NCBI GenBank assembly: GCA_947177175.1
Contig: CAMWTK010000006.1
Location: 1,039-65,038 of the forward strand
Direction: 5' to 3'
From: an uncultured Treponema sp.
Lineage (GTDB): Bacteria > Spirochaetota > Spirochaetia > Treponematales > Treponemataceae
DNA: 64,000 nt
The notes under the pieces are model-generated. The model ran no database searches. It saw only the letters and a program-made list of their open reading frames with translations, and had not been told where the DNA came from. Position numbers and translations under genes: made by a program. Positions within the stretch are counted from its first letter, which is position 1; each line of letters opens with the position of its first letter. Below are positions 19,850 through 60,642 of the stretch, piece by piece.

Positions 19850-19957
19850 TTAGTTTTTTCCGCGCCGCTCATAGCTTGCGGATTCCTGCGCCTCCGCTTC
19901 GGTCATAAAAACCGATCGTGGTTTTCCCGACGAATTGAAACACGTGCTGCTTTTCAT
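19850..19957 (-). pseudogene. Possible 35 aa remnant ORF coupled to the DUF6261-like gene
   Basis: ATGA overlap with upstream stop; MKSSTCFNSSGKPRSVFMTEAEAQESASYE. Confidence 0.25.
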
Positions 19958-20688
19958 CAGTCATCCGCTCCCGCGCCTGCCGCGCCGCTCTTCTTCTTTC
20001 CGCCCAATACTTCCTGCTTAAAATGCTCAATCTCGGTGTTGGCGTAGTCGATGAACGCGGCGTAGGCTTCCTCGCCCTCAAGCAGGGCGTGGGCGTTCAC
20101 GTGCAGCACGAGCATGCGGTATGCCTCGTCGCTCGCTGCCCGCGCCGCTTTGAGTGCGCCCGCTGTCTTTGCTGAGCGTTCGTCCGTGCGCTGACCCGTG
20201 AGCGAGCGTACTTCTTCGTTCGCCGCCTTGAGCCGCTCCACGAACGCTGTGAGCGACAGCATCTTCACCTGCTCGGCGAACTTGCCTTCCAAGTCCTGCA
20301 CGAAGTTCACGAGCAAGCCCGTCTCCTTGTCCAGCTGCGCCTGCACGTCGATTTTGTAGTCCTTGACGTGCTGTTGCAAAACTTTCGCCGCCTCCGCCAT
20401 GTCCTCCACGGGGAAGCTCGCGTAGCCCGCCACGGCCTTCTTGTAGCCCGCGTAGAGCTGGTCGCGCAGGCGGTCAGCCGCCGCGATTTTGTCGGTCGTG
20501 AGGCTCTTCGCGCTGGTTTGCAGGTTCTCGTCCTCCGCCGTGACCGCCGCCCGCAGTGCCTTCACCTGCGCCGCGCATTTCTCGGACACCGCCACGTCTT
20601 TCTCCGCGCGCTCCGCCATGTTGGACACGAACAGGAAATGCGCCGCGTTGTTCATGCCGCCCACATATACCGTCTGGATTTCTTTCAT
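19957..20688 (-). CDS. DUF6261-like all-helical protein (copy 1)
   Basis: MNNAAHFLF, ADRLRD, LDKETGLL, FIDYANTEI resemble recalled Bacteroidota DUF6261 proteins; AAGGAG RBS. Confidence 0.75.
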   Translation of the reverse strand: MKEIQTVYVGGMNNAAHFLFVSNMAERAEKDVAVSEKCAAQVKALRAAVTAEDENLQTSAKSLTTDKIAAADRLRDQLYAGYKKAVAGYASFPVEDMAEAAKVLQQHVKDYKIDVQAQLDKETGLLVNFVQDLEGKFAEQVKMLSLTAFVERLKAANEEVRSLTGQRTDERSAKTAGALKAARAASDEAYRMLVLHVNAHALLEGEEAYAAFIDYANTEIEHFKQEVLGGKKKSGAAGAGADD

Positions 20689-20735: not shown

Positions 20736-21057
20736 ATTTGTTGTGCCAAATTTGTACTTGTCGAGTGCTGAGAGGGTATCTTGCGCACCAAATTCGTGTT
20801 TGTCGAATGCTGACAGGGCATTTTGTGCGCCAAATTCGTACTTGTTGAGTGCTGGGAATGAATTTGTTGTACCAAATTCATGTTTGTTGACTGCGGGCAA
20901 GGAATTTTGTGTACCAAATTTGCACTTGTCGGTTGCTGACAAAGAATTTGTTGCACAAAATTCGTGTTTGTTGAATGCTGGTAAGGAATTTTGTGTATCA
21001 AATTCGTATTTGTTGAATGCTGACAAAGAATTTGTTGTGCAAAATGCATATTTGTTG
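20736..21057. repeat. Degenerate tandem array, 8 x 42 bp
   Basis: Units start at 20736, 20778, 20820, 20862, 20904, 20946, 20988, 21030. Confidence 0.95.
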
Positions 21058-35462: not shown

Positions 35463-36137
35463 CTATGCCACGCTTGCGTTTGCTTTGGCAATCTCAACGT
35501 CGGCTTTTGCGGCGAAATCCGCGTACTCCGCATTCACCGCGCCCATTGCCGTGAGGTAGGGCACGAGCTTTTCGTTGATTGCGGCGAGCAGGGGCTTCTT
35601 TATCGAGTATGCCGACTCGCCTTTTGCGGCGGTCGCGGTGTCGTTGGCGGCGTTGAACTCGTCCTGCGCGGTGCGGAGCGAGGCGATTAAATCGGCAACG
35701 CCGTCGAGCGACTTGATTGCGTCGGCAAGACTTTCCGCGGCGAAGTCCTCCAGCATCGATTCAATCAAAGAAGATTCGCGCGCGTAGGTCTCATTCACAA
35801 TTGACTTGCCGTACTTGTCGTAGGTGGCGAGCAGGCGTTCGGCGGCGGCTTTCTTTGCGGCGATGGGAATCGCCCCGTAGCCCGAAAGCAGCGTGCCGAG
35901 CGAGCGGATTATCTCGTCGCGCTTCGCGTCCGCGTCCTCGAGCGACCGGGACACCTTGTCCGCCTTGATTGCCGTGGTGATTTTGGCGGAGAGCGTCTCC
36001 ACCTCGCCCATGATCGCCGCGAGCGCGGCATCTTTCGCGACCGCACCGTCCTTGGCGGCCTCCTTGTAGATGCGCACGAGCGCGTCCGATACGGTGTCCG
36101 CGTCGGTGATGCGGACGTTCTGTTTCACTTTTTTCAC
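35463..36137 (-). CDS. DUF6261-like all-helical protein (copy 2), 224 aa
   Basis: GTG start with AAGGAGG RBS; ADAKRD...GY...P...AAERL...Y pattern shared with copy 1. Confidence 0.72.
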   Translation of the reverse strand: MKKVKQNVRITDADTVSDALVRIYKEAAKDGAVAKDAALAAIMGEVETLSAKITTAIKADKVSRSLEDADAKRDEIIRSLGTLLSGYGAIPIAAKKAAAERLLATYDKYGKSIVNETYARESSLIESMLEDFAAESLADAIKSLDGVADLIASLRTAQDEFNAANDTATAAKGESAYSIKKPLLAAINEKLVPYLTAMGAVNAEYADFAAKADVEIAKANASVA

Positions 36138-36167: not shown

Positions 36168-36505
36168 TTTTGCTTGTCGCCCGCCTTTGCGTCGAGAAGC
36201 GAACAAAACTTTGTTTTCTGCCCGTTTTTGCGTCAGGACAAAAAACAAATGTTTGTTTGTTCCTCGCTTTCGCGTTGGGGAGCGAAAAAACATTTGTTCG
36301 CTCGCCGTTTTTGCGTCCGGGCGAGCAAAAAACATTTGTTTGTTCTTCGCTTTCGCGTTGGGGAACGAAAAAACATTTGTTCGTTCGCCGTTTTTGCGTT
36401 TGGGCGGGCAAAAAACATTTGTTCGTTGCCCGCTTTTGCGTTGGGGAGCGAAAAAACATTTGTTCGTTCGCCACTTTCGCGTTGGGCAGACAAAAAATTT
36501 TTGTT
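36168..36505. repeat. Degenerate tandem array, about 8 units mostly alternating 42/41 bp, each a stem-loop
   Basis: TTTGTT anchors at 36210, 36252, 36293, 36335, 36376, 36418, 36459, 36500. Confidence 0.93.
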
Positions 36506-36554
36506 TGCCGTGCGCCATGAAAAGAAAACCCGCCCGCGCCGAAGCGGGGCGGGG

Positions 36555-57300: not shown

Positions 57301-58176
57301 CGCCCTGCCACATGAACGTTTGGCGTGAACGCTGCGTGTTGCCCGCCTTGCCTGATTCTTCGCCCAGTTTCTGAGCGTTGCGCCAGTACACGACCGTATC
57401 GCGTCCGAGGTTGCTTTCATCGCCCTCAATCGTCACGTTCGCGTCGCCCACGTATGCAAGCAGCTCATGGTAGCTTCCTGCCGCCACCTTGATGGTCCAG
57501 TCGCCTGTGCCGTTGGTCTTTTTGATGTGGTTGAGCGCGCCCTGAATCGTGAAGAAGTCGCCGCTCCTGCCGACCGTAATCGTGTGGTCGGAGATTGTCT
57601 TGGCCGCGCCGACCGTGAACGTCCACCCGTCTTTTGCAATGCCGCTGAAGTCCGCGCCGCTCACTTTTCCTTGTAGCAGACCGTCTTCAACGACGACGGA
57701 GTAGGTTTTCCCCGCGCTAAGGATTGCATAGCCGTCGGTGGTCACGTGCGGCTTGATGATGACCGTCTTGCCGCTTACGGTAATCAGCTGGTCATCAACG
57801 TTGAACAACTGGTAATTCTTGTTGACGGAATAATACGTTTCGCCTTTTGGATTGATGGTATCTACGAGCGTGTCGCCGTCGTAAATCATCACCGTACCCG
57901 TCGTGCCAATGGTCGGCACGTCGTCAAACTGGATAGCAAGAATGGTGTCTGCGTAGGCAGCCGTCTCGCCGTTCTTCGGAAAATAAGTACCCTCGCCCAC
58001 ATTGATGGCAGGAATGTCTATCGATGGTGTCTGCGTGGAAGTGACCGGCGGTGTGTTTGGTGTGTCACCTTCCCCGTCATCCCCGCTGGAGCAGGCTAGA
58101 AAATACCCCCCCCCATGATGGCGAGCGCAGCCATGCCCGCGAGCATGCCGTGCCTGAACGTCCTCGTTCTTTTCAT
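54343..58176 (-). pseudogene. Pectin methylesterase (CE8) lipoprotein with Ig-like domains, broken by two frameshifts
   Basis: AAGGAG RBS plus MKRTR signal at 58176; G9 tract at 58106-58114; QDTLL and DFIWG motifs; second shift near 55050. Confidence 0.8.
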
Positions 58177-58367
58177 ACGTTTCTCCTTGTCTGGCACATA
58201 TATGCGGAATGCGTCCCGCACGTGCCATTACGGTAGTATAGCACGGCTTCATGGTAATTTTCCGACCTAAAACGGTATTTTTACGCGGTTTTCGCGCACC
58301 AATCGCACGGCAAACGCCCCGTTCCCCTGCACCGTGCGGTATTTGATGACCTTGCGCCCATACCACG

Positions 58368-58500
58368 GACAGCCTAAGGTTCGTGGTACTGACAGCTCAG
58401 TGTAAGGGATGCTCACAGTCTCATGTGAGGGCCTGTTACATACCCGTGTGAGGGGTGCTCACAGCCTAATGTGAGGGGTATTAACAGCCTAGTGTGAGGG
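58368..58500. repeat. Degenerate tandem array, 6 x 23 bp, with palindrome CTCACA-N6-TGTGAG
   Basis: Units at 58368, 58391, 58414, 58437, 58460, 58483. Confidence 0.88.
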
Positions 58501-58599
58501 AGAGAAACCTGTACATGGTTTGCATACGCACCTGTACAGGTGCGTGTCGGTCATCTGTTCGTGGTGTTCGGTGTCACTGGGGCAGGAGTGCGGTGCGGG

Positions 58600-58628
58600 T
58601 TGCGTCGTGTGCCGCTGAGCGGTATACT
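58600..58628 (+). promoter_or_regulatory. Promoter of the HU/DUF4469-like gene
   Basis: TTGCGT-17-TATACT. Confidence 0.6.
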
Positions 58629-58674
58629 GGAGCGGCGGGAACGTTAGGCAGTATGCCGCGCACCGTCACCTACT

Positions 58675-58703
58675 AGTATAGCACGGTGCGCCACGACGCG
58701 CAA
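58675..58703 (-). promoter_or_regulatory. Promoter directed into the 23 bp array
   Basis: TTGCGC-17-TATACT with extended TG on the minus strand. Confidence 0.55.
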
Positions 58704-58716
58704 CGGAGGAGGGGTC

Positions 58717-59466
58717 ATGCCGAGAAAAAAGCCGGGTCTGGGGGAATTCAGGGAGGTACAGTACGGGGTGCGGGTCACGCTGTCGGAAGACCACCTGAAC
58801 GGGAGCGGGCGGCTCGTGGGCAAGGTGAACGAGCAGACGGCCACCCTGCGGAACATCGTCGGCGACATTCAGAAGAACGGGCGGTGTCTGCTGAACGAAA
58901 ACATGGTGTTCTACGCCGCGCAGGTGCTGCGCGATGCGTACCTTGACCGGCTCAGGCGCGGGTATGCTGTGGACGTGCTCGGCCTGGGGAAAATCTACCA
59001 CGCGCTCGACGGCACGTTCCGCTCCGAGAGCGACACGCCGAGCGCGCGGCCCAAGCTGGTGCCGCGCTTTACGCCGTCAAAGACACTGCTCGCCGCCTGC
59101 AAGAAACTCGTCTGCTCGGTCGTCCGCAGGAGCGACACTGCCCCGGCGGTGTGGTCGGTGCGGAGTCTGCCCGACGACGGGAGCGGCTCGGTGCGCACGG
59201 GGACGCTCGTGCGGATTTGCGGCAGGAACTTGAAGCTTGCGGGCGACGGCGCGGGCGTTTTCTTCCTGCCCACGGCGGGCGGGGATGCCGTCTGCGTGCC
59301 GCCCGAACGCATGGGCGACAACTTCCCGCGCTCGCTCATGTTCTACCTGCCGAGCGAAGTCACGCCCGGCGCGTATGCCCTTGAGGTGCGCACACGGTGG
59401 GCGCGGAACGGCAGGCTCAGGCAGGAGCTGTGCGCGGGCAGGCGGATTGAGATAACGGTGGTGTGA
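58717..59466 (+). CDS. HU-like DNA-binding domain plus Ig-like (DUF4469-like) protein
   Basis: LRRGYAVDVLGLG, RFTPSKTL, GRNLKL, GAYALEVRT; GGAGG RBS. Confidence 0.75.
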   Translation: MPRKKPGLGEFREVQYGVRVTLSEDHLNGSGRLVGKVNEQTATLRNIVGDIQKNGRCLLNENMVFYAAQVLRDAYLDRLRRGYAVDVLGLGKIYHALDGTFRSESDTPSARPKLVPRFTPSKTLLAACKKLVCSVVRRSDTAPAVWSVRSLPDDGSGSVRTGTLVRICGRNLKLAGDGAGVFFLPTAGGDAVCVPPERMGDNFPRSLMFYLPSEVTPGAYALEVRTRWARNGRLRQELCAGRRIEITVV

Positions 59467-59473
59467 GCGGGAT

Positions 59474-60076
59474 TTATCTTTTGCGCAGGGAACAGAGTGC
59501 CAGTATGGCGACCGGCACGGACAGCAACATAAAGCAGCGGTCCGTGTAGACAAGGAACCGGGCATAAAGTGGGGGCGTGCATCCAAGAAACGTAAAGACT
59601 AAGGCAAAGGTCATGCATACCGCTGAGAATATTCCGTAGCCGTACAGGAACGCCGAGGCGATGTGCGGATGCCGTCCGGCAAAACGCTGTACGGCTTGTT
59701 CCGCCGGGGCTTCTTGCGCTGCCGGGGCGGGGCTTTCGTGCGATGTGTTGCGCTTGGCTGCTGAATGCTTGAGCCACAACGCCACGAGCGACAAGAGTAT
59801 ACTCAGTGCCGTAAAGCAGATAACTCCTGCCGACATGAGACGGCTGGGGATACCGTCCGCCATGAGACAGCGGGGAAAGTTGTCGCTGAGTAGTATACCA
59901 ATAATGGGGATTAAGAAACTGACATGAACCACTACCGTCCAAATGCCGAATCCGAAGAAATACAGGGAAGCCGCGCGCGGGCATTTTTCCGCAAGCATCT
60001 GAACGCCGTAGCGTCGTCTTGCTTCCGCCTGCCGTCCCGCGCGCCCGTCCTGTCCGTCCGTGTCTGTATGTTCCAT
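59474..60076 (-). CDS. Hypothetical multi-TM membrane protein, paralogue 1
   Basis: Four hydrophobic segments; near-identical blocks with 60118-60642. Confidence 0.7.
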   Translation of the reverse strand: MEHTDTDGQDGRAGRQAEARRRYGVQMLAEKCPRAASLYFFGFGIWTVVVHVSFLIPIIGILLSDNFPRCLMADGIPSRLMSAGVICFTALSILLSLVALWLKHSAAKRNTSHESPAPAAQEAPAEQAVQRFAGRHPHIASAFLYGYGIFSAVCMTFALVFTFLGCTPPLYARFLVYTDRCFMLLSVPVAILALCSLRKR

Positions 60077-60117: not shown

Positions 60118-60642
60118 TTAGTCGTCTTTCCTGCGCAGGGAACAGAATGCTAGTATGGTGACCGGCACGGACAGCAGCTCACGGCAGAGGAGTATAGGGG
60201 GTATGCCCGTAAACCAGCACAATAGTGCGTAGCCATACAGGTACGCCGAGGCGATGCGCAGATGCCGTCCGGCAAAACGCTGTACGGCTCGTTCCGCCGG
60301 GGCTTCCTGCGCTGCCGGGGCGGGGCTTTCGTGCGGTGCGCTGCGCTTGGCAGCTGAATGCTTGAGCCACAACGCCACGAGCGACAGGAGTGTGCTCAGC
60401 ACCTTAAAACATACGTCTACTGCGACAAGGAAAAAAAAGCAAATTACATTGCAGGACATATGTAAGATGTAAATCAGGCAGCCGACAAAGACCACCACTA
60501 TCGTCCAGATGCCGGATCCGAAGAAAAATACAGAAGTCATACGCGGGCATTTCTCCGCAAGCAGCTGAACACCGTAGCGTCGTCTTTCTTCTGTCTGCCG
60601 TTCCGCGCGCTCGTCCTGTCCGTCCGTGTCTGTATGTTCCAT
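60118..60642 (-). CDS. Hypothetical multi-TM membrane protein, paralogue 2
   Basis: Shared MEHTDTDGQD start and WLKHSAAKR...QRFAGRH block. Confidence 0.7.
   Translation of the reverse strand: MEHTDTDGQDERAERQTEERRRYGVQLLAEKCPRMTSVFFFGSGIWTIVVVFVGCLIYILHMSCNVICFFFLVAVDVCFKVLSTLLSLVALWLKHSAAKRSAPHESPAPAAQEAPAERAVQRFAGRHLRIASAYLYGYALLCWFTGIPPILLCRELLSVPVTILAFCSLRRKDD

Follow-up and report, generated by a model that had tools for sequence, protein, structure and literature searches.

A 23-bp-phased array of repeats and palindromes with facing promoters upstream of an HU-HIG-type gene in Treponema

The DNA considered here is a 64,000-nucleotide stretch from an uncultured gut Treponema sp. (GenBank assembly GCA_947177175.1, contig CAMWTK010000006.1, forward-strand positions 1,039 to 65,038), referred to as the window and numbered from its first letter. 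Upstream of a gene for a 249-residue HU-like protein of the HU-HIG type, the window carries an array of 23-bp direct repeats, two palindromes and two promoters that face each other. The sequence comparisons show the layout itself, the phase and conservation of its elements and a copy number that varies; together these constitute a real, conserved and previously undescribed cis-architecture that is attached to an uncharacterised protein family. The explanation preferred for it, held tentatively and with slightly less than even confidence, would be a cooperative protein-binding operator lattice, with the HU-HIG protein itself as the candidate binder, combined with interference between the convergent promoters.

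The 23-bp lattice and its conservation

Tandem Repeats Finder reports a period of 23 with 5.7 copies at 58369-58500, and a repeat search recovers four 47-nt copies at spacings of 23, 23 and 23. The autocorrelation of the array reaches 0.56 at lag 23 and 0.54 at lag 46, and none of 2000 shuffles exceeds 0.42; comparable periodicity is found at only three places in the window, namely this array and two arrays with 41-42-bp units. Read in strict register and without assignment to a strand, the array comprises six units (58363-58500), a degenerate one at 58363-58385 followed by 58386-58408, 58409-58431, 58432-58454, 58455-58477 and 58478-58500. The unit 17-mer ACAGCCTAATGTGAGGG, allowing up to 3 mismatches, has three matches in the window, all within the array, where 0.07 would be expected. 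Each unit is closed by (A)GGG and carries a partial TCACA-N6-TGTGA dyad at unit positions 5-20. The first-pass annotation had described six 23-bp units with TCACA-N6-TGTGA-N7 periodicity; the periodicity stands, but the perfect CTCACA-N6-TGTGAG dyad occurs in just two of the six (58413-58430 and 58459-58476). The dyads of the other units are partial (TGACA..TGTAA, TTACA..TGTGA, TAACA..TGTGA), with the leftmost unit degenerate. An array of clustered regularly interspaced short palindromic repeats was ruled out, as the units run head to tail without spacers and show only ~66% matches.

The TGTGA and TCACA pentamers in the units had also been read as half-sites for regulators of the CRP/FNR family. 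They are identical to those of the CRP/FNR operator TGTGA-N6-TCACA; however, their order in TCACA-N6-TGTGA is inverted, and the alternative pairing, TGTGA-N7-TCACA, has the wrong spacing. Moreover, the orthologous arrays keep the 23-bp phase and a T...AGGG core, and not the pentamers, which are replaced there by sequences such as TTTAAC..GTAAAA, TTATAG..CTATAA and CACAC..GTGTG. The identification of the units as CRP/FNR-family sites can be given almost no credence.

Two palindromes follow the array. P1 (AAACC TGTACAT GGTTT, 58505-58521) has its centre 23 bp to the left of that of P2 (58526-58545), a perfect 20-mer with the halves ACGCACCTGT and ACAGGTGCGT that occurs once in the window and is taken as the lattice origin. 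Both centres are in phase with the array, and the earlier observation that the 23-bp phase runs on into these TGTACA-centred palindromes is thereby borne out. A conserved spacer, delimited by the locus alignment (58548-58599), contains the weaker lattice positions P3 (centre ~58558.5, CTGTTC) and P4 (centre ~58581.5), together with the conserved sequence TTCGGTGTCA. It leads to the rightward promoter of the gene, P(+) (TTGCGT-17-TATACT, 58600-58628, plus strand), whose -35 box overlaps lattice position +68/69. The order along the lattice is thus four to eight or more direct repeats with the T...AGGG core, P1, P2, the weaker P3 and P4, and a last core within the -35 box, each step of 23 bp corresponding to ~2.2 helical turns.

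A survey of the upstream regions of DUF4469 homologues had been proposed in the first-pass annotation as a check on the coupling of the array to the gene. It covered every locus with a protein 53-94% identical and at least 250 nt of upstream sequence, which amounted to 11 non-identical sequences. All 11 have the same layout, although their neighbouring genes differ, and one further contig starts at the palindrome; the coupling is therefore upheld for all close relatives surveyed. When the sequences are written in 23-nt rows anchored on P2, the unit-terminal GGG falls in one column in nine of ten loci, with a copy number that ranges from 4 to at least 8. Comparison of 50 units identifies the T and the terminal AGGG as the best-conserved positions. 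The number of units is not the same in the window, at the nearest genome locus (L001, in a Treponema metagenome-assembled genome (MAG), 94% protein identity) and in a metagenome variant, which has one extra unit, as in L001. The dyad symmetry of the units is above chance in the window, L001, L006 and L016, and at chance in L003, L009 and L011. The general feature is thus a phased direct-repeat array, and the "palindrome array" of the window is lineage-specific.

The palindromic cores hold the same register. TGYRCA cores occur at -23, 0, +46 and +68 from P2, and 27 of the 33 lie no more than 1 bp off the 23-bp lattice, where ~4 would be expected. The core at the P1 position (-23) is present in 8 of 12 loci and that at +46 in three loci other than the window; at +68 the core is TGCGCA in six loci and is located inside the -35 box of P(+), the conserved form of which is TTGCGCA. 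Because these cores are phased and the one at +68 falls within the -35 box, the array, the palindromes and the promoter share one lattice. P2 is a near-perfect palindrome in all loci, with arms that vary symmetrically by clade (ACGCACC/GGTGCGT, ACGCATC/GATGCGT, CTCACG/CGTGAG). The distance from the P2 centre to the -35 box is 60-65 bp, mostly 64, in 10 of 10 loci, and the intervening sequence diverges. Three outgroups at 26-34% protein identity still have phased sites. In L019 and L021 (33-34% identity), CATGTGA, AATGT..ACATT and TGTACA/TGCACA sites are phased at 22-23 bp, and L014, a metagenome relative at 26% identity, has CAGGGA-type repeats at 46- and 23-bp spacing as well as CTGTAC repeats. 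A degenerate-pattern search for loci with P0016 alone found nothing.

This persistence bears on the simplest alternative, a functionless neutral minisatellite that was expanded by slippage beside an ordinary promoter. Fast turnover of the unit sequences, strain-variable copy number and the many assemblies that break within the array would all accord with it. However, at 53-94% identity the array retains its position, its 23-bp period, its AGGG core and an exact phase with P2, the phasing extends to 26%, and neutral repeats would not stay in step with both a palindrome and a -35 box. A neutral origin is very unlikely.

Judged by these comparisons, the module is self-contained and ~350 bp long. 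A related module lies on another contig of the MAG that contains L001 (L023; JAAVAM010000018, 3830-4330). A second perfect P2 20-mer is accompanied there by a P1-like palindrome and by 23-bp units, at least 12 of them in phase, which form a 46-bp super-unit with the core TAGCACGG; both facing promoters are present in degenerate form. The module lacks an HU-HIG open reading frame and is situated between a gene for a 1176-residue Big_2/pectinesterase-like protein and a CoA-binding gene. In a T. brennaborense MAG (L022, 4824-4860), an intergenic P2-type palindrome, ACGCATCTGTACAGATGCGT, is paired with a second site, CGTACAG, at a distance of exactly 23 bp (+23), with no HU-HIG gene within 8 kb; the downstream gene, with the N-terminus MRKYELMTIFPV, is presumably that of ribosomal protein S6 (rpsF). 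A P2 match within an HD-GYP-like gene (L024) was set aside as chance, as were the two matches of the P2 18-mer in IMG/VR, one in an intrinsic terminator and one in a coding region. The window itself has no second P2-like or unit-like site.

Several further observations concern the array region. Compared with the window, L001 has ~130 bp of additional sequence left of the main array (2490-2640), within which a different 23-bp repeat, CCACAAAACGCCGAAAAAAATCA, is present in 2.7 copies; the same 128-nt insertion is found in a metagenome contig. Many metagenome contigs with the gene break off within the array or at P2 (L004, L008, L012, L013, L015, L016, L017, L026 and L028), and the depth of the P2-P4 segment is raised 3-10x in DNA metagenomes. 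As the module breaks assemblies, it is probably under-represented in MAGs.

Facing promoters and the leftward transcript

The second promoter, P(-) (TTGCGC-17-TATACT, with a spacer that ends in TGC; 58675-58703, minus strand), lies in the 5' untranslated region of the gene and points leftward, so that transcription from it would cross P(+), the palindromes and the array. The sequences of both promoters are as originally described, and both are conserved in orthologues. A generic TTGACA/TATAAT scan calls neither of them, the -35 boxes (TTGCGx) matching at 3/6 positions only. In both, the hexamers stand 17 bp apart and are conserved in orthologues, as expected of promoters of the sigma-70 type. 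The extended -10 pattern TTG-N17-TGnTAnnnT occurs three times in the 64 kb, against 0.52 expected, and P(-) is among the three. The TTGC..-17-(TGn)TATnnT of P(+) is kept in all aligned loci. The TTGnnn-17-TGnTAnnnT of P(-) is kept, with unrelated spacers, in 10 of 10 independent sequences, where it lies between P(+) and the ribosome-binding site.

An imperfect inverted repeat or hairpin between the two -10 boxes (58635-58668) coincides with a putative overlap of the two transcripts. With starts inferred from the -10 positions, the 5' overlap is predicted to span 30-40 nt, as it is in nine of ten loci. In single-sequence folds, the hairpins of other loci appear at the same place with different sequences and have z-scores of -1.0 to -4.6 in nine loci, L006 excepted. 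The -10 box of P(-) is found 30-83 nt upstream of the ATG across loci, so that the overlap would end upstream of the ribosome-binding site. An invertible promoter was considered and dropped, as inversion about a repeat that has its centre between the two promoters would change nothing. A CsrA sponge that presents GGA boxes on the plus strand was dropped as well, because the array has no conserved rightward promoter upstream of it.

Face-to-face promoters are known from IS10 (pIN/pOUT) and coliphage 186 (pR/pL). They resemble the present pair in their convergence and in a 5' overlap of tens of nucleotides, here a predicted ~30-40 nt with a hairpin. In contrast to those systems, the overlap here stops short of the start codon by at least 33 nt and leaves the ribosome-binding site uncovered, there is no transposase or phage context, and interference is only putative.

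If P(-) is active, its transcript could itself be the functional product, either as a repeat-bearing non-coding or antisense RNA, or as a long leader or distal promoter of the leftward gene. As an RNA, it would present CCCU/CUCCCU boxes each 23 nt that are complementary to AGGGAG Shine-Dalgarno-like sequences, including the gene's own; 7-mers common to the units and the ribosome-binding site of the gene are GAGGGGT in the window and AAGGGAG in L012. As a leader, it would serve a Big_2/pectinesterase-like surface protein, which is the leftward gene at both the window locus and L023. The conservation of P(-) and its direction through the array agree with either version, as do the left neighbour on the minus strand in most contexts, the large Big_2 surface-protein gene that both modules of the species precede, and metatranscriptome contigs that span the DNA upstream of P(+). 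On the other hand, the leftward genes are unrelated across species, the neighbour in L009 is co-directional, and the Big_2 gene of the window has its own proximal promoter. In the latter, the extended -10 13-mer recurs (58234-58246, CCGTGCTATACTA on the minus strand); the exact 13-mer TAGTATAGCACGG is common to this element, which is conserved in L001, and to P(-) at 58674-58686. The array units of L023 also resemble degenerate copies of the TAGTATAGCACGG motif.

A structured repeat RNA, as postulated earlier, was not supported, since the Rfam search of the whole window at the gathering threshold gave no match and, with z-scores of -1.09 for the minus strand and -1.91 for the plus strand, the folds do not clearly surpass those of shuffled sequences. 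Hairpins would be very weak in AT-rich clades, and the dyad is at chance in L003, L009 and L011. The G.U-versus-A.C asymmetry in P2, 8 to 3 by hand count over the aligned P2 sequences, clearly favours neither strand and is not decisive between an RNA hairpin and a DNA palindrome. Four metatranscriptome-type runs contain related strains, as unstranded contigs only; the HU-like gene is covered in a metatranscriptome, and a further search of RNA runs with L002 found nothing. The depth peak at 58520-58600 is also present in DNA runs and is thus ascribed to a multi-copy segment, from co-resident strains or loci, and not to expression, which confounds the RNA depth over P2-P4. A functional leftward RNA or leader is, on balance, unlikely.

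The HU-HIG protein and other candidate factors

The gene (58717-59466, plus strand), preceded by a Shine-Dalgarno region read directly as GGAGGAGGGG (58705-58714, plus strand), encodes a probable HU-like N-terminal domain and a DUF4469 immunoglobulin (Ig)-like C-terminal domain; all orthologues likewise have purine-rich ribosome-binding sites. In Pfam, DUF4469 (PF14734) is matched with E=2e-13 and 50.6 bits against a cut-off of 22.6, and the N-terminus matches PF14848 (HU-DNA_bdg, E=2.6e-5) and PF18291 (E=0.006), both under their curated cut-offs. A family profile that includes distant relatives matches PDB 4FMR with E=2.9e-14 over residues 38-247, and an AlphaFold model from a 15-sequence alignment shows a confident beta-sandwich for the Ig half (residues 140-249). 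There are 14 clusters of close relatives (53-94% identity), all from Treponema MAGs or gut metagenomes, and 864 distant relatives. NCBIfam, PADLOC and PHROGs gave no match for the protein and its relatives, and none was found with the protein in phage collections and IMG/VR. By these domain and profile matches, the product belongs to the Ig-fused HU-HIG clade, the prototype of which is the Bacteroides structure 4FMR (PMC5499826). Transfers to spirochaetes and a lack of conserved gene neighbours were described for this clade (PMC5499826), which has a patchy distribution, spread laterally among Bacteroidota and occasionally to spirochaetes; both observations are reproduced here.

Flanking genes vary by lineage: a Big_2 surface or adhesin-like gene in the window, and CHAP, DpnII, RNase H or helix-turn-helix genes elsewhere. 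Since they differ between loci, the HU-HIG gene is the only constant partner of the module, and as the only gene always present it provides the most economical candidate for the putative binder. Members of the HU superfamily act as dimers (PMC5499826). In the preferred explanation, a dimeric DNA-binding protein, with the HU-HIG protein as the candidate, would nucleate on the palindromes and polymerise cooperatively along the lattice. Occupancy up to the -35 position would set the output of P(+) and might thereby establish autoregulation. Convergent transcription from P(-), with a ~33-nt 5' overlap, could add transcriptional interference or antisense pairing. Together, lattice and convergent promoters could allow the locus to act as a switch, which the strain-variable repeat number would tune. 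The L023 module, which lacks the gene but resides in the same MAG as L001, is what would be expected for a factor that acts in trans.

Several points weigh against this explanation. From 4FMR, the Ig domain has been argued to occlude the DNA clasp, and HU-HIG proteins were considered unlikely to be sequence-specific factors (PMC5499826). That study, the only analysis published on these proteins, describes no cis-element and predicts no sequence specificity and maybe no DNA binding; the conserved phased lattice of the Treponema clade points in the opposite direction. In the AlphaFold model, the N-terminal domain is poorly predicted, with a predicted local distance difference test (pLDDT) score <50. 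Array units and palindromes are different sequence types, and one protein would need two recognition modes, such as those of plasmid Rep proteins, or else two factors would be required. Unit sequences are strongly divergent across clades, that of L005 being quite different, and P3, P4 and the -35 core of the window itself are near-matches only. The metatranscriptome contigs, as noted above, are unstranded, and the raised depth over P2-P4 appears in DNA runs too. Finally, no array is present at the genes of distant members, namely one on the T. saccharophilum chromid pTS1 and two in Parabacteroides, the latter two having only ~50 bp of intergenic DNA. As far as the loci compared indicate, the lattice belongs to a Treponema-centred clade and not to all HU-HIG genes.

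The extra sites at L023 and L022 fit a trans-acting factor, and they also leave room for one other than the HU-HIG protein. A different host factor might bind the lattice as a regulatory region shared by both divergent genes, with the HU-HIG gene as one target. P2 with phased partners but without an HU-HIG gene, at L023 and upstream of the rpsF-like gene at L022, speaks for such a factor, as does the structural argument that an Ig-fused HU-HIG protein may not bind DNA (PMC5499826). Yet the module tracks the HU-HIG gene through unrelated neighbourhoods down to 26% identity, the 64-kb window has no further P2-like or unit-like site, and the P2 20-mer of the L012 type has no second site in species representatives. 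A host factor of this kind is therefore regarded as quite unlikely.

Comparison with plasmid systems gives a precedent for the layout assigned to the HU-HIG gene, and at the same time another possible origin for it. Among known designs, theta-plasmid iterons, plasmid centromere arrays and the face-to-face promoters described above come closest to the module, which departs from each of them in a defining feature. Theta-plasmid iterons (pSC101, pPS10, F, P1) consist of direct repeats and an inverted-repeat operator with an autoregulated rep gene. The resemblance lies in helically phased direct repeats of ~22-23 bp that are followed by palindromic operators overlapping the promoter of the adjacent gene for a DNA-binding protein, and two recognition modes, for direct repeats and for palindromes, are plausible in both. 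The site could, by this classic layout of repeats, operator and putative DNA-binding-protein gene, be an iteron-type replication origin or a centromere-like partition site of an integrated plasmid-like element. However, the protein is HU-like and Ig-like and not a winged-helix Rep or a Par protein, searches of Pfam, NCBIfam and PHROGs match it to no Rep family, and its neighbourhood lacks ParA/ParM and Rep genes. No DnaA box (TTWTNCACA) occurs within 20 kb of the array, and the region, with a G+C fraction of 0.49-0.63, has no AT-rich element for unwinding. The context is chromosomal, with housekeeping genes that include a carboxyltransferase-like open reading frame and, from its translation, one which we take to be valS. 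Plasmid and phage collections gave no matches except the unrelated chromid copy, which has no array. The conserved convergent promoter sets the locus apart from iteron plasmids, and a replication function is not indicated; an origin or partition site is highly improbable.

Plasmid centromeres such as sopC, with 43-bp repeats that contain an internal dyad, parC/ParR and parH/ParG are bound by the adaptor encoded in their own operon. They share with the present array phased sites, some with internal dyads, beside the gene of the presumed binder, and cooperative, filament-like, autoregulating binding is the working model in both. Unlike them, the array stands upstream of a single gene, with no gene for a partition ATPase. 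The sopC period is closer to that of the 41-42-bp arrays of the window, described below, than to that of the 23-bp array.

Other arrays and neighbouring genes

The two remaining arrays of the window each precede a DUF6261 gene on the minus strand by 50-60 bp. One has 7.4 copies of a 42-bp unit (20737-21057) upstream of the gene at 19957-20688, and the other has six copies of a 41-bp unit with an internal inverted repeat (36198-36507) upstream of the gene at 35463-36137. The initial count of three array-plus-gene cassettes in the window is confirmed. A DUF6261 gene of Prevotella nigrescens likewise has a 41-bp array of 3.6 copies with an internal dyad (L031, 608-806), ~90 bp upstream of the aligned start, and from this likeness the pair of array and DUF6261 gene looks like a cross-phylum cassette.

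To the left of the lattice, a run of nine C (poly-G on the coding strand) at 58106-58114 stands between a lipoprotein signal peptide, MKRTRTFRHGMLAGMAALAIMGGG..., and the main part of the 1116-residue Big_2 surface-protein open reading frame, which is in another frame. One added G in this run would join the two. L001 has the same nine C (~2279-2287), and a variant with a 1-nt deletion was seen in one sequencing run; slipped-strand phase variation, a pseudogene or a homopolymer error may be responsible. To the right, tandem paralogues on the minus strand (59474-60076 and 60118-60642) converge on the HU-like gene. They encode small membrane proteins with the common N-terminus MEHTDTDGQD...RRRYGVQ.LAEKCPR and have no family assignment. 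In other Treponema lineages, restriction-modification genes (N6_N4 methyltransferase and MvaI/BcnI, DpnII, HsdR) neighbour the HU-HIG gene (L006, 4902-6507; L009, 268-1128; L018, 1-762), a setting that would suit the "biological conflict" idea put forward by Burroughs et al. (PMC5499826).

A more speculative extension of the preferred explanation would regard the Ig-fused HU-HIG protein of the Treponema clade as a sequence-specific, cooperatively polymerising binder of the 23-bp lattice with two site types, that is, an HU-derived transcription factor or filament former. Combined with the convergent promoters, it would form a heritable on/off switch, with a regulon that includes surface-protein loci of the L023 type, and DUF6261 with its 41-42-bp arrays would be a second family in which a gene is paired with a private repeat lattice. 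This extension is rather doubtful. Since DUF6261 arrays occur in two phyla, small genes that carry repeat arrays of their own may form a wider class that has gone unrecognised and is probably under-reported, because repeat arrays break metagenome assemblies.

In gut Bacteroidota and some spirochaetes, the HU superfamily has undergone a large and fast-evolving expansion, the HU-HIG proteins, to which no function has been assigned. The conserved phased lattice offers a concrete candidate DNA ligand and a first testable target for the HU-HIG(Ig) family. Should the protein bind it, the family would acquire a function and a recognition code, and would provide a model for cooperative binding along a lattice.

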